From the NCBI GenBank assembly GCA_030649345.1, contig JAUSKK010000019.1:1-19327 (forward strand): a stretch of 19,327 nucleotides of DNA, given 5' to 3'. This stretch comes from Candidatus Iainarchaeum sp. Its GTDB lineage: Archaea > Iainarchaeota > Iainarchaeia > Iainarchaeales > 0-14-0-20-34-12. This document shows positions 2,444-12,991 of this stretch, in pieces. The first letter of the stretch is position 1. The number at the start of each line of letters is the position of its first letter. The translations under genes and the position numbers were made by a program. Below the pieces are notes generated by a model. That model saw only the letters and a program-made list of their open reading frames with translations. It had not been told where the DNA came from and searched no databases.

Positions 2444-2845
2444 TTATTTTTTGCGGTTGATTTTAAACAATGGACCATATCGAACGAATTCTACTTCATC
2501 GCCAGCTTTAATGCCTGGAATATCTTTGGGATTTAATACATCCACTGTTTCATAAGATTCTTGGTCCATAATTTGAATATTCCCGCCCATGACTGCAACT
2601 ACATTGGCTGAACCTTTTTCAACAATTGGAACTTCTACATCTGCAGAAGTAGGCTTTAAGAGTACTCGTTTTTGGTTGTCAAACAAGCCAATAGTCGTCA
2701 TTCTGGCTTTGGTAGACCCGTGTTTTCCGGATTTACTTTTTTCAACTTCTTTAACTTTGCAAACATGCTCGTCAATTAAAATATAACTTCCTTCTTTTAC
2801 TTGGCCAATTTCTTTAAATTGCTTTTCTGCATCCTTTCCTGCCAT
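2444..2845 (-). CDS. eif5a: Translation initiation factor 5A (aIF5A)
   Basis: 133 aa, starting at ATG 2845 with GAGGTGG 7 nt upstream. The hypusine-loop motif SKSGKHGSTKAR (K41 in GKHG) is present, followed by a C-terminal OB-like half typical of aIF5A/eIF5A. Confidence 0.9.
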   Translation of the reverse strand: MAGKDAEKQFKEIGQVKEGSYILIDEHVCKVKEVEKSKSGKHGSTKARMTTIGLFDNQKRVLLKPTSADVEVPIVEKGSANVVAVMGGNIQIMDQESYETVDVLNPKDIPGIKAGDEVEFVRYGPLFKINRKK

Positions 2846-2902
2846 TTTGTATCCACCTCAAAAACATCAATTACAATTATTAAATAGATTAAACTATAAT
2901 AA

Positions 2903-2973
2903 TCAGAGTGTTGAACAAATAAAAACATATGGTTGAGTTCAATATATTAAATATATAGTATTCAACACTCTGA
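2903..2973. repeat. Perfect 13-bp inverted repeat (TCAGAGTGTTGAA / TTCAACACTCTGA) with a 45-nt AT-rich spacer
   Basis: Arms read directly at 2903-2915 and 2961-2973. The repeat lies in the divergent intergenic region between aIF5A and the 3135 ORF. The spacer contains its own 7-bp palindrome ATATATT-A-AATATAT (2942-2956). Confidence 0.7.
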
Positions 2974-2990
2974 AAGAGCTTTACAAAGAA

Positions 2991-3007
2991 AATATAAATC
3001 TATATAT
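2991..3007 (+). promoter_or_regulatory. TATA-like run (AATATAAATCTATATAT), candidate promoter for the 3135 transcription unit
   Basis: AT-only TATA-like stretch about 25 nt upstream of the first hairpin of the 3029-3135 array. Placement follows the archaeal TATA rule of about -26; no BRE was assessed. Confidence 0.3.
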
Positions 3008-3028
3008 CGGGTTATCGGGTGCAAATAT

Positions 3029-3135
3029 GGTTTCAAAATCAAAGACTTTGAAAACCTTAAAAAACCAGGGGGGTTTTAATGGATTTAAATTTTGCAACAA
3101 AATTTAAAAATTTAAAATCGCAGAGGCGATTTTAA
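3029..3135 (+). repeat. Array of four consecutive AT-rich hairpins/palindromes abutting the ATG at 3135
   Basis: Stems read directly: 3029-3037/3047-3056; 3057-3066/3072-3079; 3084-3094/3098-3108 (11 perfect bp); 3112-3121/3126-3135 (10 perfect bp, loop AGAG). Centres are about 27 nt apart. They share the TTAAAAYC...GRTTTTAA theme with 7786-7954. Confidence 0.7.
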
Positions 3136-3620
3136 TGGAATTTCCTTCAGGCGAAAAACTAGAAACTGGAATTTTGTTAAAAAAATTCAATTTAGAGAAA
3201 ACCTTTACTCAATTGGCCGGCAGTAAATTTTCGGGTTATTTGGCCTTAACTATAGACAATACTACTGGAATCGAAGAAGGCATTTTGTTATGGAGAGAAG
3301 GAAAAATCACAGCCGCTCAATATGAGTACGGGCAATTGAAAGTTATTAACCAAGGAGAATTGGCATTTCAAGAATGTGTAAATGCTTTGCAGGCAGAAAA
3401 AGGAATTGTGGATATTTTTCAATTAACCAAACAACAAGCAGAACTCATTATAGCCTTTAATGAAAAACTTAAAACAGAACACGAAATCAAAGACTTAAAA
3501 AAATGGCTGGCAAAATTTTCAACCAAATTTAATGAAGACAGCCAAAAAAAAGCACAAAGCACAGATAAATCCAAAATTGACATCATGAAAAAAATGGGGT
3601 TATTGGATATTGAAAAATAA
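3135..3620 (+). CDS. Hypothetical protein, possible DUF4388/PATAN-like N-terminal domain plus Lys-rich helical tail
   Basis: 161-aa ORF starting at ATG. The pattern GILLKKFNLEKTFTQL..FSGYLALT...GILLWREGKITAAQYE....GELAFQECV...GIVDIF matches my recollection of the DUF4388 signature (G.L..l.dll..l....tG.L.v....g.iyf.dG.ivhA...G..A). It lies immediately upstream of a MinD-type ATPase. The family call is unverified. Confidence 0.55.
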   Translation: MEFPSGEKLETGILLKKFNLEKTFTQLAGSKFSGYLALTIDNTTGIEEGILLWREGKITAAQYEYGQLKVINQGELAFQECVNALQAEKGIVDIFQLTKQQAELIIAFNEKLKTEHEIKDLKKWLAKFSTKFNEDSQKKAQSTDKSKIDIMKKMGLLDIEK

Positions 3621-3631
3621 TTCGGCAACCC

Positions 3632-3639
3632 TTATAAAT
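3632..3639 (+). promoter_or_regulatory. TATA box (TTATAAAT) for the MinD-like gene, implying a leaderless or near-leaderless mRNA
   Basis: It sits 23-30 nt upstream of ATG 3662, and there is no SD between it and the start. Confidence 0.4.
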
Positions 3640-3661
3640 TTGTAGTTCTTAATAAGTTACT

Positions 3662-4444
3662 ATGACTCGCGTAATTGCAATCACTTCCGGAAAAGGTGGA
3701 GTAGGGAAAACTACTTTAACTGCTAATTTAGGAATTGGTTTAGCTCTCCAAAACCAAAAAGTTTTGCTGATTGATGCAGACATTGCCATGGCGAATTTGT
3801 CTTTGCATTTAGGAATGCAAAACACCCCCATTACATTACATGATGTATTATTGGGAGAGGCCTCCATTGCAGATTGTGTTTACGACGGACCCAACAAAAT
3901 TGAAATTATTCCTTCCGGTTTAAGTATTGAAAGTTATCGAAAAATTGATCCCACTCGGCTCAAAGGAATAGTAGATTCCATTAAAGACAAATATGATTTC
4001 ATTTTAATTGATACTGCAGCAGGCATTGAACGCATTGCTTTAGCAGCCTTAAGTGCCAGCACTGAAGTACTGCTGGTAGTAGAGCCAACGTCCAGCAGTA
4101 TTGCCGATGCATTGAAAACCAAAATCAGTGCCCAAAAATTAAATTGTAAAATCATTGGAGTTATTTTAAACAAAGTATTTAATGAAAAAGGAGAAATTTC
4201 TTCGGAAAATATTAGCCGAATGCTGGAATTACCAGTATATGCCATTATTCCGTTTGATGAAATTGTACGCAGATCATTCTATGAAGAACGTGCACCCTTT
4301 ATGGCCAGCGGAAAACAAACTCCAGCCATGAATGAAGTGAACAAAATTGTTTCCAGACTTATAGGGATTCCCATTAAAGAAACCAGCACAAAGGAATCAT
4401 TTATAAAAAGATTCTTAAATAAAATATTCAAACACAAACAGTAA
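3662..4444 (+). CDS. minD: MinD/ParA-family P-loop ATPase (archaeal MinD-like) with C-terminal amphipathic helix
   Basis: 260 aa. It has the deviant Walker A SGKGGVGKTT (residues 9-18), LLIDADIAMANL and a Walker B-like FILIDTAAG. The C-terminal SFIKRFLNKIFKHKQ resembles the MinD membrane-targeting helix (E. coli ...GFLKRLFGG). Confidence 0.85.
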   Translation: MTRVIAITSGKGGVGKTTLTANLGIGLALQNQKVLLIDADIAMANLSLHLGMQNTPITLHDVLLGEASIADCVYDGPNKIEIIPSGLSIESYRKIDPTRLKGIVDSIKDKYDFILIDTAAGIERIALAALSASTEVLLVVEPTSSSIADALKTKISAQKLNCKIIGVILNKVFNEKGEISSENISRMLELPVYAIIPFDEIVRRSFYEERAPFMASGKQTPAMNEVNKIVSRLIGIPIKETSTKESFIKRFLNKIFKHKQ

Positions 4445-4470
4445 AAAATAATCTAAAAGGAGAAAACACA

Positions 4471-4710
4471 ATGCAAGATAAAAAAACAGAAATACCTGGA
4501 AGACCATTTGATGACTTAAACAAAGCAGTTGGAGAAACTGTCTTGGTGAAACTGAAAGGCGAAAAAACAGTTCGCGGAATCTTAAAAGCATTTGATGTAC
4601 ACTTAAATATTGTATTGGATCAAGCCGAAGAATTAGAAAATGGAGAAGTTAAAATCAAGCACAGCAAACTCATGGTTCGCGGCGACTCCATTATTATGAT
4701 TGCTTTGTAA
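4471..4710 (+). CDS. Sm-like archaeal protein (SmAP/LSm)
   Basis: 79 aa with AGGAG 9-13 nt upstream of the ATG. Sm1 (VLVKLKGEKTVRGILKAFDVHLNIVL) and Sm2 (KLMVRGDSIIMI) motifs are present. Confidence 0.9.
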   Translation: MQDKKTEIPGRPFDDLNKAVGETVLVKLKGEKTVRGILKAFDVHLNIVLDQAEELENGEVKIKHSKLMVRGDSIIMIAL

Positions 4711-4711
4711 A

Positions 4712-5086
4712 TTACTTTCTAGACTTTTTTGCAATATCTTGAAATTCCCACACTAATGAAAGTAAATGCAAACGTTGGGCATAATCTTTTTCTTTTCCAG
4801 CTGCTTCAGAAATAGCACGAGCTATTTTATCTAAAGCATCAAATTGAAATTTTCCTTGTTCAGCTCTGCGCAATAATTCATGCACTGCACCTAAACGCAA
4901 AGTATGATGCGCATAAGCACTTTCACCTGGAGGACTTCGAATTTGATTGATTAAACCTTGAGATGGTTCTTTGAGTTGAGCAGTGGCTAATTGGGGCACA
5001 GTTTGTTTACCTAGTTGACTTGAAGCTTGAGTGTGTACAGCGTATTTGATTTTTGTGGCACGCAAACGTCCAAGTCTTCGATTCAT
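4712..5086 (-). CDS. Hypothetical all-alpha protein (orphan)
   Basis: I prefer ATG 5086 (124 aa, MNRRLGRLRATK...) over the TTG at 5110 used in the ORF track. A TATA-like TTTAATAATT sits 23-32 nt upstream of ATG 5086, suggesting a leaderless mRNA. The protein is Gln/Ala/Leu/Arg-rich and contains an R-x4-H string (RLGAVH). No family recognised. Confidence 0.5.
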   Translation of the reverse strand: MNRRLGRLRATKIKYAVHTQASSQLGKQTVPQLATAQLKEPSQGLINQIRSPPGESAYAHHTLRLGAVHELLRRAEQGKFQFDALDKIARAISEAAGKEKDYAQRLHLLSLVWEFQDIAKKSRK

Positions 5087-5108
5087 ACAAACAAAAATAC
5101 TGAAAAAC

Positions 5109-5118
5109 AATTATTAAA
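5109..5118 (-). promoter_or_regulatory. TATA-like element (TTTAATAATT on the minus strand) for the 4712-5086 ORF
   Basis: Positioned -23 to -32 from ATG 5086, in the divergent spacer shared with tRNA-Ala. Confidence 0.35.
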
Positions 5119-5150
5119 GGTTTCAGTCCATTATTTAATATCCAACACTT

Positions 5151-5222
5151 GGGCTCGTAGCGTAATGGTATCGCGCACCCATGGCATGGGTGAGACTACG
5201 GGTTCGATTCCCGTCGAGTCCA
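5151..5222 (+). tRNA. tRNA-Ala (anticodon GGC)
   Basis: Hand-folded cloverleaf: acceptor GGGCUCG/CGAGUCC with the alanine identity pair G3:U70; D-arm GCGU-AAUGGUA-UCGC; anticodon arm CACCC-AUGGCAU-GGGUG; T-arm ACGGG-UUCGAUU-CCCGU; discriminator A. CCA is not encoded. Confidence 0.9.
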
Positions 5223-5283
5223 CTTAAAAATCAACTTACAAAAATACAGACATACTATCCATCAGTCTGTATGAGATCACATT

Positions 5284-5814
5284 ATGAGAAAATCAAATCC
5301 AAAAACAAGAAAACCTAAGAGTATTGTGAAAAAACCATTTAATCCATATCGAACCATGAAAAGAACTATTACCAAAGCAAGCTTTGCTGTTCGAAAAAGA
5401 GCAGGTCCTCAATCTAAACGAAGCCCCAATGAAAAAATGAAACGCGTCAAACATGTTTTTAGACAAAAAATGATTCAGCCATTAATTAAATATGCATTGG
5501 ATAAAAACGGAATTACGAATCTTGAAATAAGAGCTTTTTGTTATCAAAGATATCCATATGGAGAAGAAAATGAAGGACTCCAAAAAGGCCTTAGAGAACT
5601 ATTTAAAAAAATCTGCACAAAATATTCTGAAGGCCAAGCTTCACAAGTTATAAATGACTTCAACGACTTAGCGGCCAATATGACTTCACTTTTAGTGCAA
5701 CGGCCGCCAATCCATCCAAATCCTGTGACTGATTTAGCACAAGTACAAGCATGGTCAAGAAGGGTATTAAATGCAGCACAAAAGCAAATGGATAACTTGA
5801 AAAGAAAAAAATAA
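5284..5814 (+). CDS. Hypothetical protein with strongly basic N-terminal ~60 aa (orphan)
   Basis: 176-aa ORF starting at ATG. The N-terminus MRKSNPKTRKPKSIVKKPFNPYRTMKR...RKRAGPQSKRSPNEKMKRVKH is Lys/Arg-rich, followed by a helical C-terminal half. No family recognised. Confidence 0.5.
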   Translation: MRKSNPKTRKPKSIVKKPFNPYRTMKRTITKASFAVRKRAGPQSKRSPNEKMKRVKHVFRQKMIQPLIKYALDKNGITNLEIRAFCYQRYPYGEENEGLQKGLRELFKKICTKYSEGQASQVINDFNDLAANMTSLLVQRPPIHPNPVTDLAQVQAWSRRVLNAAQKQMDNLKRKK

Positions 5815-5973
5815 ACACACAAACAATTGGGTGCACACGCAAAACGCTTTAGCAAAAATACAATCGTAAACTAGAATACTGTAAAATTTAGAAAAGCCTC
5901 TGAAACTCACAGAATACAACCAGTACATGCGTGTACATAGCTTTTTAAGAATAAAAACTCTAATGTAGAAAGC

Positions 5974-7335
5974 ATGCAAGAAGATGATTTACTGATTCAG
6001 TCCATTAAAAAACTGCGTTCTTTGAATGTTTCTGACCAAGAAATTTTGTTAAACTTAAAAGAATTGGGCGTAGACGAACCTAAAGCTAGAACCTTGTTAG
6101 CGCAAAGCAAACAAACACAAAACGAATTATTAAAAGAAACTGCAAATTTATCGGAAACTGAATCCGAAGAAAATGTTTTATTGGATGAAGTCATGGAAGA
6201 CAAAACACAAGTACAATCAATTAAGCCAATTCCGGAAGCTACTCAAATTTCTAAATTATGGGAAAAAGGAATTCTGGTAACCATTACTCAAAACTTGGAG
6301 GAAATGCAGCGCTTAAAAAAAGACATTGGGTTAGTTGTCGATTCTAAAGTAAAAGAAAGCATGGAAAAAGAAAGGAAAAAAATGCAAACCTTGCTGGACT
6401 CACAGCGTATTTTGTTAGGCGAAAAAGTGAATGTAGAATTGCAAGGAAAAGAAAAAGAAATTACGGAAATCATTAATTCCAAAATACAAGAATTAACCGA
6501 ATTGGCTAAAGAAATTCAGGCCAATTTGCAGGACATTGAGCGTTTAAAAATAGGCCAACAGCAAGTCTTGAAAGAATTTGAAGTCAAAAAACAAGAACTC
6601 ATTCAAACCAAAAACAAAATGGTTATTGAAATGAATTCTGAATTAATTAAAGAAAAAAGTTCAGCCGAAGAAATATTAAACCAGTTAAAAGAAAAACTGG
6701 GAGAAATAGATAATCGTGTGGATAAATCATTGGAATTAGAATCTAAGATTGTCGAAGGATTGGTAGCCGATGCAGAAGACCAGATTACGCAATTAAAAGA
6801 TGAAAAGAAAAGCGAACTCAGTGCAGACATTGAAGCTGAGCTTGAAAAATTAGAAGTAATTCGAAAAAAAATTGATCCAGACAAATTACAGGAAAAAATA
6901 AAACAATTGGATTTATTCAAAAAACAAATCGAACAGGCATTTACAGGAAAAGAGCAGGAAATTGAATTATTCAAACAACAACTTCAAGTGAAATCTATGG
7001 AAGCAGCCAAAGAAGCTGCGCAGGAAAAAGTAAGCGAAAGTGCTGCAATCGTACGCAAAGAAATGGATGTAGAAGGCTTCAAAACGCAAATGAAAGGATT
7101 GGAAGAATTCAGAAAACAATTTGTAAACGCCTTGCAGGAAAATACAGATCAATTTAATGAAAAATTGACAATGTTTAATGAAAGCACAGTGCAAATGATG
7201 AAAGAGTATGATTCTAGAGTGAAAAAAATTGATTCCAAAATCGAAGAGCTTGACACTTTTGCCAAAAACTTTGCGCAAGAATTGGGATTAGTACTGGATG
7301 AATTAATCAAAAAAGAAAAAAACAAGAAAAAATAA
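5974..7335 (+). CDS. Long coiled-coil protein (Glu/Lys/Gln-rich) with a small N-terminal helical domain
   Basis: 453 aa. Residues ~90-450 are nearly continuous heptad-like E/K/Q/L sequence. The C-terminal third carries a recurring L-[DE]-x-F-[KRA]-[KQ]-[QN]-[IFL] motif (LDLFKKQI, IELFKQQL, LEEFRKQF, LDTFAKNF). The N-terminal LIQSIKKLRSLNVSDQEILLNLKELGVDEPKARTLL looks like a UBA/TS-N-type three-helix unit, which is tentative. Confidence 0.7.
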   Translation: MQEDDLLIQSIKKLRSLNVSDQEILLNLKELGVDEPKARTLLAQSKQTQNELLKETANLSETESEENVLLDEVMEDKTQVQSIKPIPEATQISKLWEKGILVTITQNLEEMQRLKKDIGLVVDSKVKESMEKERKKMQTLLDSQRILLGEKVNVELQGKEKEITEIINSKIQELTELAKEIQANLQDIERLKIGQQQVLKEFEVKKQELIQTKNKMVIEMNSELIKEKSSAEEILNQLKEKLGEIDNRVDKSLELESKIVEGLVADAEDQITQLKDEKKSELSADIEAELEKLEVIRKKIDPDKLQEKIKQLDLFKKQIEQAFTGKEQEIELFKQQLQVKSMEAAKEAAQEKVSESAAIVRKEMDVEGFKTQMKGLEEFRKQFVNALQENTDQFNEKLTMFNESTVQMMKEYDSRVKKIDSKIEELDTFAKNFAQELGLVLDELIKKEKNKKK

Positions 7336-7339
7336 TAGT

Positions 7340-7714
7340 TTACAAGCTTTTTAGTTTTACATATTTTTGATACGCTTGTTCTACATGTTCGTGTCTTACG
7401 TATTGTTTGTGGTTTCGAAAACCGCCGGCAAATGATTGGGGAACATGCATGAGTTCATGAATCAATACTTTGGTTTGAGCTGTTGCATCCAGTTTGTTAA
7501 ATTTTTCAGAGATTAATTCAATTACATAGCAGGGCTTCATATTCATGCCAATCTGCAAGGCTTTCGAAGTTCCATGAATGCGAGCATAAGCCCTAGCTTT
7601 TGAACCAAAACTAATAATGCACGAAATACGTGAATGATCAATGTAATCAAAGTTTAAAGTGCTGGCAATTTCATGCGCTTTGTTTGTCCATTCTGGAGAA
7701 AAAGAATACTTCAT
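7340..7714 (-). CDS. Predicted zinc metallopeptidase (HExxH; archaeal COG4900/SprT-like small peptidase)
   Basis: I prefer ATG 7714 (124 aa, MKYSFSPEW...) over the TTG at 7729. It has an HELMH motif followed by VPQSFAGGFRNH, and an upstream SFGSKARAYARIHG. This matches my memory of the small archaeal predicted-metallopeptidase family. Confidence 0.6.
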   Translation of the reverse strand: MKYSFSPEWTNKAHEIASTLNFDYIDHSRISCIISFGSKARAYARIHGTSKALQIGMNMKPCYVIELISEKFNKLDATAQTKVLIHELMHVPQSFAGGFRNHKQYVRHEHVEQAYQKYVKLKSL

Positions 7715-7767
7715 ACACAAACAAAACAACTAAAAGAATTAAAAAAGAAGTATTGTGAAAACAAAGT

Positions 7768-7965
7768 CAAGCCTATCGAGTGAAACGCAATTAAAATCGA
7801 AGATTTTAATGCGTGATTAAAACTTAGAGTTTTAATACGCCCAGCTTAGGCGCATTAAAACCAAGGGTTTTAATCGCGAAGATAGGCTAACACGCCAACC
7901 AGGTTATACTGCAAAATCGAAGATTTTGCATATACGCAAAATTACAATTTTGCGGTATGGTTGAA
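7768..7965. ncRNA. Candidate structured RNA / palindromic-unit cluster of unknown class (strand undetermined)
   Basis: There are two nested domains. AGCCTATC 7770-7777 pairs with GATAGGCT 7881-7888 and encloses hairpins 7786-7813, 7816-7836 and 7851-7878. CAACC 7896-7900 plus ATAC 7906-7909 pair with GTAT 7955-7958 plus GGTTG 7959-7963 and enclose hairpins 7910-7930 and 7935-7954. Arm differences between units are compensated. No Rfam family was identified by eye. Confidence 0.4.
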
Positions 7966-8610
7966 TTATTGGAAAACATTTTGCGGTTTGAACATTTTCT
8001 TTCTTCCTTGTTTTTTCCAGCCAGGCTTATGTGAACCTCTAGCTTTTTCTGCGCCTTTTCCTTTATTGCGCAAGCCTCGGGATTTTCTACCTGAACTGGT
8101 TAAGCCTCTCCAAACTCTTCCGCGATGATTTCCATTCAATAACCAGTTGACGTCTTTGTCAGATTGAACGGCTGGATTTAAAGAATCAATTAAAATGACT
8201 TCAAAATAATGCTTGGTTCCATCGTTTCCAACAGAATAACTGTTTAAGACTTCACAATTTGGAAACTTTCGTGCAGCTCTTTGTTCTGCAATGGATTGAA
8301 TGCTTAAGTTTCGGGTTAATTTATTAATTCCCATTCGCTTAGGTCTGCGGGCCATAGTTGGTCTTGTGTGCATTCCTGAACCTTTTCTGACTCGAACGCG
8401 GGCAACCACAAAACCTTGTTTGGCTTTATAACCTAAAGTTCGGGCTCTAGCTAAATTCGTAGGCCTTTGCACTCGAAGAACAGCATGTTTTTCTTTACGG
8501 TAAGTCTGCAATCTGTCAGCATTGATTTTTTTATAATTGAAATCTTTGTCTTTTTTACCCTTAAACTCATTTTGAAAGGTTTCTTGAATATACGTTAACG
8601 CATTGGTCAT
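7966..8610 (-). CDS. rpl15e: 50S ribosomal protein L15e
   Basis: I prefer ATG 8610 (214 aa, MTNALTYIQETFQ...) over GTG 8619, because L15e proteins begin with this Y-I-x-E/D-x-W/F-type segment. Diagnostic stretches: RPTNLARARTLGYKAKQGFVVARVRVRKG, RPKRMG, EVILID, NHRGRVWRGLTSSGRKSRGL. Confidence 0.92.
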   Translation of the reverse strand: MTNALTYIQETFQNEFKGKKDKDFNYKKINADRLQTYRKEKHAVLRVQRPTNLARARTLGYKAKQGFVVARVRVRKGSGMHTRPTMARRPKRMGINKLTRNLSIQSIAEQRAARKFPNCEVLNSYSVGNDGTKHYFEVILIDSLNPAVQSDKDVNWLLNGNHRGRVWRGLTSSGRKSRGLRNKGKGAEKARGSHKPGWKKQGRKKMFKPQNVFQ

Positions 8611-8729
8611 AAAAGTCACTTAAAAACAGTTATAGAATAAATAATCCGGATATTTTAAAAAGGAATACTTTAAAGGCAAATTAAACGAAAAAGGCTCTAT
8701 TTTTAAGAAATTCTGAGAAAATACACTAT

Positions 8730-9749
8730 ATGGGAAGCACTAGCACAGAATTAATTTTGACGTGTGGAGAAAAACGCACAGACATATTGAAAGAACAGGC
8801 AGTCCAATGCAGGCATTGCAGTCAACCAGCAAAAATTCATTTACCGTACACAAAATTAGATTTATGCGCTAATCACTTCACGCACTTGTTGGAAAAACGA
8901 GTGAAGTATACTGTTCGAAAATACAAACTTATTCAAGCCAAAGAAAAAATTGTAATCGGTGTCAGTGGAGGAAAAGACTCCATGACTACATTGCATATTT
9001 TGGGAAAATACTATTCTAAGAGCAATCCAATTGAAGCCTTAATGATTGACGAAGGAATTCATGGATACAGAGACAGTGCAGTCCAAGTTGGAATCAATAT
9101 GTGCAAACAATTGGATATTCCGTACAAGGTTGTACGTTATCAAGATGAATTTGATTTAAGTATGGACAAAATTGCGAACTTAATTGAAAAAAATCCAGAC
9201 TTAGGTACAACATGTAGTTTTTGCGGAGTCATGCGCAGACAATTGTTGAACAAATATTCCAGAGAAATGGGGGCAGACAAATTAGCTACAGGACACAATT
9301 TAGATGACGAAGTTCAAAGTGTGTTAATGAATATTACACAAAATAGCTATGATTCTTTTATTCGCACTGGAGCCACTACTGGAATTAAAAGTTTTCAAGG
9401 ATTTATCCCCAGAATTAAACCATTGTATGAAATTCCAGAAAAAGAAATTATTGCCTATACTGCGTTCAATAATATTGAGCATTATTCGCATGATTGTTGT
9501 CCGCATTCCTGGCAAGCCAAACGCAATGATTTTAGAAAAATTTTAAATGACTTGGAAACCAAATATCCTGGAACCAAATACGGAACATTAAATTTCTTTA
9601 ATGCAGTTAAAGACAAACTTCGCACAATAGAAGTAGACAAAATCAAAACACTCGATATGGAATACTGTAAAGAATGCGGAGAACCGAGTGCTAAAGCAAA
9701 ATGCAAAGCTTGTGAAAAGATAGAGATTTTAAAAAAACAACCTATCTAA
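8730..9749 (+). CDS. ttuA: TtuA/Ncs6(NcsA)-family tRNA 2-thiouridine synthetase (PP-loop ATPase with Fe-S and zinc-finger cysteines)
   Basis: 339 aa. It has an N-terminal CxxC...CxxH finger (CRHCSQP...CANH), the PP-loop SGGKDS, central CSFCGVMRR plus a later DCCPHS (cluster-ligand pattern of TtuA/Ncs6) and a C-terminal CKECG...CKAC finger. Whether the target is U54 or U34 cannot be told from sequence. Confidence 0.8.
9727..9734 (+). promoter_or_regulatory. Possible TATA element (TTTTAAAA) for tRNA-Val inside the 3' end of the ttuA-like CDS
   Basis: It lies 27-34 nt upstream of tRNA position 1 (9761). Only 11 nt separate the CDS stop from the tRNA, so any dedicated promoter must lie within the CDS. 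Confidence 0.25.
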
Positions 9750-9760
9750 GTAGTTTAATC

Positions 9761-9831
9761 AGGCCCGTGGTTTAATGGTAGAATGGCACACTTACACTGT
9801 GTTGAAAGGAGTTCGATTCTCCTCGGGCCTA
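9761..9831 (+). tRNA. tRNA-Val (anticodon UAC)
   Basis: Hand-folded cloverleaf: acceptor AGGCCCG/CGGGCCU (A1:U72); D-arm GUUU-AAUGGUA-GAAU; anticodon arm GCACA-CUUACAC-UGUGU; 4-nt variable loop; T-arm AGGAG-UUCGAUU-CUCCU; discriminator A. CCA is not encoded. Confidence 0.88.
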
Positions 9832-9837
9832 CTTTAA

Positions 9838-10398
9838 ATGAAAAATATGCTCGAAACAGATTTTGTTGAATTTTTTGACTTAAATAAACTAAAACAAATT
9901 CAAGCCTTTTTAGGGAACTCAAAAATAGTTGTTTTGAAAACCGTGAAAGTTAAAGAAGAAATCAAAGACTTAAAAGAACAATTTCCTAAACTTGAATTTG
10001 GAACCTGGATTAATTCAAAAAATGAGCGCATGATTCAATCTATGGGTTCTCAAACTAAATATTTAGTTGTGCCTGCAGAAACTTTACAAGATTACCAGTT
10101 TTCAGTTAACCACAAGCAAGTACAATTTATTGTGCCTAATTTAAAACGAAAACTAGAACTAGACCTCCAATTAGCTGGATTGTTAGGCAATGCCGAAAAG
10201 ATAATCTTAATTCCTTTTTCTGAATTTTTAACAGCCAAACCTTTTGAAAGAGCAAAAATGATTGAAAACTTTAAAAAATTATCTAAGATATGCAAAAAAG
10301 CAAAAATAGAAATGCATTGGATTAGTTTAGCTCAAAACGAATATGACTTAAGAAATATGAAAGACTTCAAAAACTTAGAAAGCTTAATTCAAAAATGA
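9838..10398 (+). CDS. rnp3: RNase P protein component 3 (Rpp30/Rnp3-like)
   Basis: 186 aa. The C-terminal two-thirds (YLVVPAETLQDYQFSVNHKQVQFIVPNL...ILIPFSEFLTAKPFERAKMIENFKKLSKICKKAKIEMHWISLAQNEYDLRNMKDF) aligns by eye with my recollection of Pyrococcus Rpp30 ([28 protein letters not shown]...[43 protein letters not shown]). It needs an HMM check. Confidence 0.6.
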   Translation: MKNMLETDFVEFFDLNKLKQIQAFLGNSKIVVLKTVKVKEEIKDLKEQFPKLEFGTWINSKNERMIQSMGSQTKYLVVPAETLQDYQFSVNHKQVQFIVPNLKRKLELDLQLAGLLGNAEKIILIPFSEFLTAKPFERAKMIENFKKLSKICKKAKIEMHWISLAQNEYDLRNMKDFKNLESLIQK

Positions 10399-10419
10399 AC
10401 AATCAATCAGTGAAAAAAT

Positions 10420-10977
10420 ATGAGTACACAAAAAAAATTACCTTCCCACAAACAATGCTTGAACTGGATTCAGGAGAAAAATCCAGCCAACATTGTACAG
10501 CATAGTTTGCAGGTCAACAAAGTTGCAATGTTTTTAGGAAAAAAATTACAAGAAAAAGGACAAAAAATTGATTTAGAGTTATTGGATCGAGCTAGTTTAC
10601 TGCATGACCTAGATAAATTTGAAACTCTGAAAACAGGCAACCATGGATTTACAGCAGGAAAATGGTTAAGAAAAAAAGGATTCAAACGAATAGCAGAAGT
10701 CATAGAACACCATTTAACCAACCGAATATTGGATTCAGATTTTAATGAATGGCCTTGGGAAGACAAGTTAGTCAATTATTCAGATCGAAGAATTGTACAT
10801 ACTAAAATTGCCAGCCTAAAAGAACGATTTGCTTACTTGATTCAAACATATGGAACTACACCAGAACGAAAAAATACTTTAAAAAAAGCAGGACAAAAAT
10901 TCTTGAAATTTGAAACACAATTAAAGAAAATACTTAAAAGTTCTTTAAGCTCTAACCAGCTCAAAAAACAGATTTAA
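10420..10977 (+). CDS. HD-domain metal-dependent phosphohydrolase
   Basis: 185 aa. H...HD signature: VQHSLQV (His), LLHDLDK (HD), IEHH further downstream. Substrate unknown. Confidence 0.75.
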   Translation: MSTQKKLPSHKQCLNWIQEKNPANIVQHSLQVNKVAMFLGKKLQEKGQKIDLELLDRASLLHDLDKFETLKTGNHGFTAGKWLRKKGFKRIAEVIEHHLTNRILDSDFNEWPWEDKLVNYSDRRIVHTKIASLKERFAYLIQTYGTTPERKNTLKKAGQKFLKFETQLKKILKSSLSSNQLKKQI

Positions 10978-11041
10978 TAATGAGTGATGTTCTGCATAAA
11001 GCATCCTAACGATATTTGCTAACTATCGACATCACTCATTA
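10978..11041. repeat. Perfect 13-bp inverted repeat (TAATGAGTGATGT / ACATCACTCATTA) enclosing a 38-nt spacer with inner stems
   Basis: The arms are at 10978-10990 and 11029-11041, starting at the base after the HD-gene stop codon. There is an inner 5-bp stem CGATA 11010-14 / TATCG 11024-28 and a mini-stem TGC-ATAAA-GCA. Confidence 0.7.
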
Positions 11042-11067
11042 AATAAACTACATATTCTAAATAAGTC

Positions 11068-11427
11068 ATGCTAAGAGAGGATAAATTTGCAATTCTAGCC
11101 ATAGCCGTAAGCTTGTTAGGCCTAATTTTATTGTTTTATTATACAGAAACCCAACAACCAATTTTAGTCAAAGTAAGTGAAATTACGGAAGAAAAAATAG
11201 GCTGGCAAATTGAAACCCAAGGCCGAGTCAAAAATCTATATTCTGGAAAAAACTTTCTTGCATTTGAATTAATAGATCAAAACAGTATTTCTGGAATTTT
11301 GTTCAATCCAAATACAATTCAAGCAGCTGTGCTTCAAGAAAATTTTAAAGTAAAAATTCAGGGAAAAATAGAAAAACGAAACAAACAACTCCAAATTCAA
11401 GTACAGGAAGTGAGTTCGTTTGACTGA
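11068..11427 (+). CDS. Membrane-anchored OB-fold protein (tRNA_anti-like OB domain after one N-terminal TM helix)
   Basis: 119 aa. TM helix FAILAIAVSLLGLILLFYY, then the OB pattern IETQGRVKNLYSGKNFLAFELIDQNSISGILFNP....FKVKIQGKIEKRNKQLQIQVQEV. Confidence 0.6.
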   Translation: MLREDKFAILAIAVSLLGLILLFYYTETQQPILVKVSEITEEKIGWQIETQGRVKNLYSGKNFLAFELIDQNSISGILFNPNTIQAAVLQENFKVKIQGKIEKRNKQLQIQVQEVSSFD

Positions 11428-12583
11428 ATTTGGTTTACTGCTTACTTTTGTTTTAGCCGGATGGATTCTTGGAACTTTTACTGGATTTATTCCAGGAATT
11501 CACGGAAATCTAATTGCTGGATTGCTGGTACTGTTTTTTAGTTCCAGCAACGAATATCTTGCCATGGCAATTATTTCAGCCAGCATTACCCATGTGTTTT
11601 CAGAATGGATTTCTGCACAATTGCTTCAATGGCCAACCGAAACAGGATACCTTTTTCAGGTATATTCAAATTCCAAAACATCTTTTCAAGAATTAATTCA
11701 CCAAGGATTTATTGCAGGATTGCTTGCGATCATTTTTGCGTTAGGGTTAAGTTCAATTCTTTTTTTCATTCAACCCATTCTTCAAACAATCACATTTCAT
11801 TTGCTTATTTTAGTATTGGGCTTGTTGATTGTCAGTGCAGGAACTTGGAAAAAAACAATTTACACAATTGCAATTATTGGATTGGCTGGAATTCTGGGAT
11901 TAATTGCATTAAATTCATTAACATTTCGCGATCCATTGCTTCCCTGCATTACTGGATTTTTTGGAATCAGCACTTTGCTGCAGGAATTGTTTTTAGAAAA
12001 AATGAAAACAAAAGAACTCACGTCAACTCAGTGGAGTTGGAAAAATAATGCAATCGGAACAGGAATTGGATTAAATATTGCATTAATTCCCAGCATAACC
12101 ATCGGAGAACAAACTTTAGCAGCACAAGAAATATTTGGAAAAAAGAAAGGATTGAATTGGCAGAATACAATTGCGTGCGCCAGTATAGCTTCTTTGGTTG
12201 CTTCTTTTATTTTAGCTGAAACCAATAATCTTGCACGAACTGGACAATCTGCATTAATGAAGGAAATGCTGTCTGGAAAAGAAAATTTAATTCTAATATT
12301 GGGAGTAATTCTTTTCACATTGGGATTATCTTATTTGAGTCATTCGTTTTTTGCAAAAAAAATTTCTGCAGGCATGCAAAACTTTCCAGTAAAACTATTT
12401 TCGGTAATTTCTTTAATTTTTTTAATTGCCATCAACTTTATTTTAGGCAGTTGGCTGGGATTATTTTTGTTAATTATTTCAACCAGTATTGGCTTGCTTC
12501 CTTTGTTAACTGGAACCCATCGAAGCAGCTGCATGAGTTTTTTATTAATTCCTACTTTGATTTTTTATTTTCCGTTCGGTTAA
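11420..12583 (+). CDS. Polytopic membrane protein, DUF112/TctA-like (archaeal COG1784-type)
   Basis: 387 aa with at least 9 hydrophobic helices. The N-terminal GTFTGFIPGIHGN resembles the DUF112 G-x-x-PG signature. The start is TTG at 11420, overlapping the upstream stop by 8 nt and preceded by GGAAGTGA 7 nt upstream. There is no in-frame ATG for about 46 codons. Confidence 0.6.
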   Translation: MTEFGLLLTFVLAGWILGTFTGFIPGIHGNLIAGLLVLFFSSSNEYLAMAIISASITHVFSEWISAQLLQWPTETGYLFQVYSNSKTSFQELIHQGFIAGLLAIIFALGLSSILFFIQPILQTITFHLLILVLGLLIVSAGTWKKTIYTIAIIGLAGILGLIALNSLTFRDPLLPCITGFFGISTLLQELFLEKMKTKELTSTQWSWKNNAIGTGIGLNIALIPSITIGEQTLAAQEIFGKKKGLNWQNTIACASIASLVASFILAETNNLARTGQSALMKEMLSGKENLILILGVILFTLGLSYLSHSFFAKKISAGMQNFPVKLFSVISLIFLIAINFILGSWLGLFLLIISTSIGLLPLLTGTHRSSCMSFLLIPTLIFYFPFG

Positions 12584-12622
12584 TAGATTTATTTAAATCC
12601 TGAACTCAAATAACATTACTGT

Positions 12623-12991
12623 ATGTATTTAGTAAAACAGCAGCTAATCGATTCCTTATTGGAAGCTGCGCGCATCGTTTATCCAAATGAATTTATTTGC
12701 TTAATTGGATCCAAACAAAACAATCAAATCTTAGATGATTTAGTGGTAGTTCCTGCAGTTTACGGAGATAGTTATTCGTTCATTCACTCTCATTTAGTGC
12801 CTATAGATCCAACCATTAAAGGGTCTGTGCATTCGCACCCAACACAATCCAATCAGCCAAGTACAGCGGATAAACAAGCATTTCAAAAATTAGGCAGTGT
12901 GCATTTAATTATCGGATACCCGTATACTATAGACTGTATTCAGATGTACGACTCGCAAGGAAACCCAATTCATTTTGAGGTAATTCAATGA
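12623..12991 (+). CDS. JAMM/MPN+ (Mov34) family metalloprotease
   Basis: 122 aa with a complete JAMM motif: E23 ... H70-S-H72-x7-S80-x-x-D83 (HSHPTQSNQPSTAD). Confidence 0.8.
   Translation: MYLVKQQLIDSLLEAARIVYPNEFICLIGSKQNNQILDDLVVVPAVYGDSYSFIHSHLVPIDPTIKGSVHSHPTQSNQPSTADKQAFQKLGSVHLIIGYPYTIDCIQMYDSQGNPIHFEVIQ

Follow-up and report, generated by a model that had tools for sequence, protein, structure and literature searches.

The hairpins upstream of the DUF2226 gene of this uncultivated archaeon are probably (at a rough probability of 0.55) a lineage-specific insertion of short palindromic modules, similar to REP/BIME elements or small MITEs, with no conserved role in regulation or partition. 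Of the three readings put forward in the preliminary description, REP-like palindromes that have landed in a permissive spacer is the best fit, because the hairpins are absent from relatives and the same design recurs in a second spacer. By this account, about 108 nt of hairpin modules would have entered right behind an old start codon (ATG 3027) and supplied a new one (ATG 3135), and modules of the same design would have colonised another spacer downstream of the L15e gene. The modules would be mobile DNA or present in many copies, or at a minimum unstable through recombination. Any effect on DUF2226 would be a by-product: either transcripts from the old promoter now have a leader of about 110 nt in which the last hairpin hides the AUG, or ATTTAAAAA, which lies within the insert at -33, acts as promoter and the transcript is leaderless again.

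The window analysed here is a whole 19,327-nt contig from a metagenome-assembled genome (MAG) that NCBI names Candidatus Diapherotrites archaeon. It has a G+C content of 33% and a typical archaeal gene set that includes aIF5A, a TBP-like protein, LSm, L15e (MDO8428097.1), an RNase P p30-like protein and two tRNAs; a metallopeptidase (MDO8428096.1) is encoded on it as well. Some genes of the contig carry Shine-Dalgarno (SD) sequences of the GGAGGTG type. A switch in GC skew near position 3000 was considered as an origin signal and rejected, since skew tracks gene strand along the contig and the spacer at this point is not conserved.

The hairpin block occupies a 289-nt spacer between the divergent aIF5A (2444-2845, minus strand) and DUF2226 genes (Table 1). 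DUF2226 is under purifying selection (dN/dS = 0.12, with dS about 1.1, between the window and its ortholog in locus L001), and its N-terminus is conserved (MEFPSGEK in the window, MEMPSGEK in L001). The ATPase encoded next to it matches the archaeal MinD model and fails those for ParA (ParA_partition, 64.5 against a cutoff of 180). Within the 41-nt spacer that separates these two genes (3621-3661) there is a TATA-like CTTATAAAT about 33 nt ahead of the MinD ATG, so MinD may be transcribed separately as a leaderless mRNA. A profile search with DUF2226 found no solved relative, and its AlphaFold model (pLDDT 75.8) matched no PDB fold at E below 0.05. As far as this model goes, nothing points to DNA binding by DUF2226, and such binding stays conceivable. 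On an ENA contig (L038, 208-552, P0006), a HepT-like toxin domain is fused to the last ~40 residues of a DUF2226 protein that are 91% identical to those of the window; either a close relative has undergone a rearrangement or the assembly is chimeric.

Table 1. Positions of the features discussed in the text. Single-hairpin z values compare each hairpin, folded alone as a DNA strand, with 200 shuffles.
Feature	Position	Strand	Description
69-nt inverted-repeat element	2904-2972		perfect 12-bp terminal inverted repeats CAGAGTGTTGAA / TTCAACACTCTG; A/T-rich centre; DNA fold z = -3.6
Conserved promoter block	2975-3004	+	ancestral TATA-like box AAATATAAA (2990-2998); nearly identical in L001
Tandem duplication	3005-3020	+	perfect 8 nt, TATCGGGT twice, between TATA block and ATG 3027
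ATG at ancestral position	3027-3029	+	opens 26-codon ORF in frame with DUF2226; TAA stop at 3105-3107
Hairpin A1	3029-3056		imperfect, GGTTTCAAA / TTTG[A]AAACC; z = -1.1, 27/200 shuffles fold as well
Hairpin A2	3057-3079		imperfect, AAAACC / GGTTTT core plus outer TT/AA; resembles B3; z = -1.9, 18/200 shuffles
Hairpin A3	3084-3108		11 perfect bp, loop CAA; z = -4.5, 0/200 shuffles
TATA-like ATTTAAAAA	3102-3110	+	33 nt ahead of ATG 3135; could serve as a new promoter giving a leaderless mRNA
Hairpin A4	3112-3135		10 perfect bp, loop AGAG; z = -7.9, 0/200 shuffles; resembles B1
Direct repeat TTTTAATGGA	3130-3139	+	second copy of 3074-3083, 56 nt apart
DUF2226 gene	3135-3620	+	161 aa, intact; Pfam PF09987
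Archaeal MinD ATPase gene	3662-4444	+	TIGR01969 minD_arch, 268.8 bits against a cutoff of 201.75
Cluster B	7785-7959		five hairpins of cluster-A design; between L15e stop (7966) and metallopeptidase promoter
Hairpins B1 to B5	B1 7785-7814, B2 7811-7840, B3 7850-7878, B4 7905-7934, B5 7931-7959		single-hairpin z = -4.1 to -6.0

Re-reading the window confirms the coordinates and sequences first given for the four hairpins of this spacer (cluster A), as well as the position of the A of ATG 3135 as the final base of A4, the AGAGG run at 3122-3126 and the presence of a TATA-like run. The four are of unequal strength. A3 and A4 are strong, and the claim of four hairpins stands for these two; A1 and A2 are marginal, and each alone is no better than chance. 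Folded as RNA, the whole of 3020-3145 has a z of -2.7. The direct repeat TTTTAATGGA splits the block into two related two-hairpin units of ~56 nt, at about 3028-3083 and 3084-3139. Their second halves (A2 and its tail, A4 and its tail) are about 75% alike by our own count, and their first halves (A1 and A3) are unlike each other. Since RTTTTAATG also follows B1 and B3, the present ATG of DUF2226 may belong to the repeat consensus and not to a duplicated target. Two short ORFs are found within the block, one of 26 codons that starts at the old start codon (3027-3107) and one of 18 codons (3079-3135, MDLNFATK...). The TAA of the latter overlaps the DUF2226 ATG as TAATG.

Cluster B consists of five hairpins of the same design, and its RNA fold has a z of -7.9. 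Perfect stems of at least 9 bp with loops of 2-8 nt occur 7 times in the window compared to 1.9 times in dinucleotide shuffles, and all seven fall within the two spacers (two at 3084-3135 and five at 7790-7954). This clustering is real. An alignment of the copies gives a common design in which an A-run and a pyrimidine are followed by a loop of 2-5 nt, a purine and a T-run (AAAAY...RTTTT), often with AATG thereafter. A4 is like B1 with a longer tip (TTAAAATCG...GATTTTAATG), and A2 is like B3. The pattern TTAAAAY-N(3-9)-RTTTTAA is present three times in the window, where 0.10 are expected. Among the stem differences between copies, five positions have changed on both sides and one-sided changes are absent, which argues that the ability to form a hairpin has been propagated and not a fixed sequence for protein recognition. 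The nine hairpins are 20-30 nt overall, and in seven the stem is perfect over 9-11 bp. Both clusters lie between genes and have linkers of 0-40 nt, and adjacent arms are complementary as well. The family link to 7786-7954 that had been proposed from the sequence holds at the level of architecture, on which it mainly rests, because the sharing of k-mers between clusters A and B is only modestly unusual (four 10-mers, p about 0.012).

Several other properties of cluster B and its surroundings were observed. An outer stem between AGCCTATC (7773-7780) and GATAGGCT (7882-7889) encloses B1-B3, and a second outer pairing (7901-7965) encloses B4-B5, which gives two multi-hairpin domains in a region where NCBI has no annotation. 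A CRISPR-like array was discarded as a description of the repeats because their spacing is irregular and each unit is itself a palindrome. The stretch at 5151-7729 contains tRNA-Ala and then three ORFs, two of them with no family match and one matching PF18894 'phage metallopeptidase', and it is a synteny break relative to the related loci L040 and L041. The idea that 5224-7785 is an integrated element bounded by cluster B was rejected, since it has no att-type repeat of tRNA-Ala and no integrase. A PHROGs search returned just two weak matches (E 0.002-0.004) and was uninformative on the ORFs of this stretch.

Homologues of DUF2226 are few. Four relative loci were compared with the window (L001, L002, L003 and L006, with 78, 65, 64 and 39% amino acid identity, respectively), as were 20 further DUF2226 loci with 30-41% identity from Micrarchaeota, Diapherotrites and Iainarchaeum genomes. 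L001, L002 and L003 keep the gene order aIF5A-DUF2226-MinD-LSm as far as their contigs reach, and there are no hairpins in their aIF5A/DUF2226 spacers of about 77-107 nt. None occur in L006 either, in which another gene is found upstream of DUF2226. Of the 24 homologous loci, 0 have a hairpin of 9 bp or more in the 200 nt that precede DUF2226, and TTAAAAY-N(3-9)-RTTTTAA has no match in any archaeal relative locus examined. The preliminary description had named beforehand, as an outcome that would refute it, the absence of the hairpins from orthologous loci that keep the genes, and this absence is what the comparison found.

The region downstream of L15e also has no hairpins in relatives whose L15e is 65-68% identical. 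In the closest relative (ENA ERZ27297570), the spacer between L15e and the metallopeptidase is 214 nt, against 251 nt in the window, a comparison of lengths alone. Since this spacer is also long, cluster B may be older than cluster A and possibly functional, which counts against the reading as inserted repeat modules. Related DPANN genomes have palindromes of a different type from those in the window, AAACCTTTTT-NN-AAAAAGGTTT, at gene ends (L007, L010, L011, L014, L016, L017, L018, L020, L024 and L040), and these look like bidirectional terminators with T-runs. In L014 (9756-10281), they bracket a tRNA-Val and a GC-rich stretch that lacks annotation and matches nothing in Rfam.

An anchored alignment with L001 places the extra DNA of the window in three blocks. 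By this alignment, the spacer has evidently grown to 289 nt by the addition of the 69-nt inverted-repeat element, the 8-nt tandem duplication and ~108 nt of hairpin modules. The long spacer is derived, because the outgroups have a short one. L001, L002 and L003 keep both flanking genes with neither insert and represent the empty site; in L001, the promoter block is preserved too. Ancestrally, the aIF5A/DUF2226 spacer measured about 100 nt, with a TATA box about 20 nt before the start codon, a distance that implies a leaderless mRNA. From this box to the ATG there are 19 nt in L001; in the window there are 28 nt to ATG 3027, or 20 nt minus one copy of TATCGGGT. ATG 3027 therefore represents the old start codon, as the distance matches that of L001 once the duplication is removed. 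The hairpin block beyond it (3030-3137) keeps the frame and ends in the second ATG, which leads into the conserved N-terminus, and ATGG is present at both of its edges (3027-3030 and 3135-3138). The 69-nt element is not in the orthologous spacer of L001 and has no target-site duplication. A scan of JGI metagenomes for its repeat pair gave only six unrelated GC-rich matches.

An independent assembly breaks at module boundaries in both clusters. Two Logan contigs assembled from run SRR13727527 match the window exactly, one over 3108-7842 and the other over 7813-12751. The first of these begins at the last base of A3, and the two share 30 nt (7813-7842) that include the B2 hairpin; this overlap equals k-1 for k = 31, assumed to be the Logan k-mer size. 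Two of the three known junctions are thus at module edges within the hairpin DNA, which totals 276 nt; by our own arithmetic, this has a chance probability of about 6e-4. Palindromes alone should not break an assembly graph, because the stems are far shorter than k. Forks at module edges in both clusters therefore suggest that the reads offer alternative continuations, as would be expected if the modules are multi-copy or polymorphic for presence and absence.

REP and BIME elements are imperfect palindromes of 20-40 nt that form extragenic clusters, have a high dispersed copy number, carry a GTAG or CGTC tag and go with a cognate RAYT (a Y1 transposase) in the genome. Like those of E. coli and Pseudomonas, including REPINs, the 20-30 nt palindromes of the window are confined to extragenic spacers and arranged back-to-back with short linkers. 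The copies likewise keep their stems through compensatory differences, one cluster is located just 3' of a gene, and the hairpins are not conserved between related genomes. Unlike REP stems, which are GC-rich, those of the window are AT-rich, and none of the nine hairpins has a visible GTAG or CGTC tag beside it; the flanks are CGC/GCG or A/T-rich. There is no RAYT, Y1 or other transposase gene among the window ORFs, and the host belongs to the DPANN archaea. There are published reports of loosely defined REP-like palindromes from archaea as well (PMC12306157, PMC3733652). In the 19.3 kb covered, the present family occupies two loci, and it has no copies in the loci examined from relatives.

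The arrangement at DUF2226 can also be compared with small non-autonomous insertions that remodel 5' regions, such as MITEs, the Correia elements of Neisseria and the palindromic elements of Rickettsia. Similarly, the window has a palindromic insert of ~100 nt at the 5' end of a gene, its length is a multiple of three, and it may bring a promoter-like sequence and even a start codon. A second inverted-repeat element (2904-2972) is present in the same spacer. In contrast to MITEs, the hairpin block has only weak terminal inverted repeats (ends resembling YAAAATC...GATTTTR), and no other copies or parent IS were found. There is also no clear target-site duplication, as the sole candidate is the flanking ATGG, which a start codon favours anyway. 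Searches of viral contigs returned only low-complexity AT repeats with a degenerate (IUPAC) double-hairpin pattern, three chance matches in AT-rich phage contigs with the exact B1 core and no match with an extended consensus; blastn of both clusters against plasmids and phages gave no match. These results weigh against the insertion of repeat-type modules, as does the origin of the evidence in one 19.3-kb contig of the genome.

Palindromes might instead be generated locally, through duplication of a ~56-nt two-hairpin unit combined with template switching or slippage that makes perfect inverted repeats, and would then have neither mobility nor function. The repetition of TTTTAATGGA and the resemblance of A2 and its tail to A4 and its tail speak for such a process, and the perfect 8-nt tandem duplication that adjoins the block suggests a slippage-prone spacer. 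The lack of copies in the metagenome, viral, plasmid and phage searches agrees as well, with the provision that the metagenome scan used the repeat pair of the 69-nt element. We nevertheless regard a purely local origin as unlikely, since cluster B, 4.7 kb away, is built of modules with this design, the first hairpins of the two units are unlike, and the forks of the assembly in both clusters suggest that the modules are multi-copy or polymorphic.

The consequences of a modular insertion for the expression of DUF2226 depend on which promoter is used. If the old TATA box is active, then the mRNA would begin near ATG 3027 and have a leader of ~110 nt that contains the 26-codon ORF, with the AUG of DUF2226 in the A4 stem and AGAGG in its loop. 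If the insert-borne ATTTAAAAA is the promoter, a leaderless mRNA would be restored. The latter site scores 7.4 bits, which is in the range of the best sites of other upstream regions and in the top 0.6% or better of window positions. The box model behind this score is crude, its training set being 21 upstream regions of the contig; because it captures only a weak A/T motif at scattered positions, no choice between the old and new promoters is possible. The old promoter block is GCTTTACAAAGAAAATATAAATCTATA in the window and GCTTTGCAAAGCAAATATAAACCTATA in L001. Its conservation despite saturated synonymous sites nearby (dS about 1.1) argues that either the old TATA box is still in use or the insertion is recent.

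Continued use of the old promoter with a long structured leader fits this conservation, and to that extent it favours an acquired RNA leader over repeat-type modules. Transcription would start from the TATA box at 2990-2998, and A4 would gate the translation of DUF2226, for example in response to temperature or an RNA-binding factor. As in RNA thermometers and other leaders that occlude the SD sequence, the AUG closes a 10-bp AU-rich stem in silico and SD-like purines are in the loop. A4 is strong as RNA (about -10 kcal/mol), AGAGG is 8 nt before the AUG, and GGAGGTG-type SD sequences are used by some genes of the contig. On the other hand, the structure is found in no ortholog and matches no Rfam family, a 3' end also carries modules of this design, and transcription of the leader is a prediction. 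All of the relatives compared lack the hairpins, and the orthologous spacers do without the region altogether. In an Rfam search at gathering and permissive thresholds, only the two tRNAs pass, and matches in 2846-3200 and 7700-8000 are far below threshold. The stems are also perfectly Watson-Crick paired with zero G-U pairs and are consequently strand-symmetric. A leaderless mRNA from the old promoter would begin at ATG 3027 and translate the 26-codon ORF, and the TATA-like site at -33 provides a simpler route to expression. An RNA leader acquired for regulation is accordingly doubtful in our estimation. The proposal that a structured leader gates translation does not survive as a conserved mechanism, given its absence from orthologues and Rfam; as a lineage-specific by-product of insertion, it is possible if the old TATA box is still the promoter.

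The hairpins have a T4 run on both strands, and it is very unlikely that both arrays are bidirectional terminators or mRNA-end hairpins that stop or stabilise transcripts as bacterial REPs do. Cluster B directly follows the L15e stop codon, relatives have the AAACCTTTTT-NN-AAAAAGGTTT palindromes at gene ends, and a terminator scan flags A4 on the minus strand and a pairing of B2 with B3. Cluster A, however, is between divergent genes where there is no upstream transcript to end, and a terminator there would block the old promoter of the gene itself. In addition, the T-runs span just four nucleotides and are inside the stems. A terminator or stabiliser role suits cluster B and not cluster A.

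That the palindromes form an operator or centromere array, recognised as double-stranded DNA by DUF2226, MinD or a transcription factor, is highly improbable. The archaeal partition systems SegAB and pNOB8 AspA-ParB-ParA have repeated palindromes upstream of an operon for a deviant Walker ATPase, and the window shares this arrangement, with iterated palindromes upstream of the Walker-type ATPase gene pair and half-sites about one helical turn apart. The centromere reading of the preliminary description fails because the ATPase is an archaeal MinD and not ParA or SegA, and MinD has its own TATA-like box. No DNA-binding adaptor or fold is recognised in the DUF2226 model, 0 of the 24 related loci have iterated sites upstream of the cassette, and arm sequence and loop length (2-5 nt) vary among copies while complementarity is kept. 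Modules of the same design downstream of L15e are at odds with this role too; more generally, the occurrence of the two clusters in different contexts, 5' of DUF2226 and 3' of L15e, argues against any function specific to one gene.

DPANN archaea have tiny, compact genomes with few described repeats. If the modules are multi-copy, then they would document REP/BIME-like palindromic repeats in a DPANN archaeon, and they would also show an insert that landed exactly on a leaderless start codon and did not destroy the gene. A bolder form of this explanation, to which we assign a low likelihood, is that the modules represent a previously undescribed type of mobile hairpin cassette from DPANN archaea, whose consensus has a TATA-like A/T run and a terminal ...TTTTAATG and which spreads without the GTAG/RAYT machinery of bacterial REPs. 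Insertion of such a cassette at the start of a leaderless gene would bring a portable promoter and start codon and thereby rewire its expression. For annotation, the lesson is that neither a regulatory nor a centromere feature should be assigned to the DUF2226-MinD pair on the strength of these hairpins.
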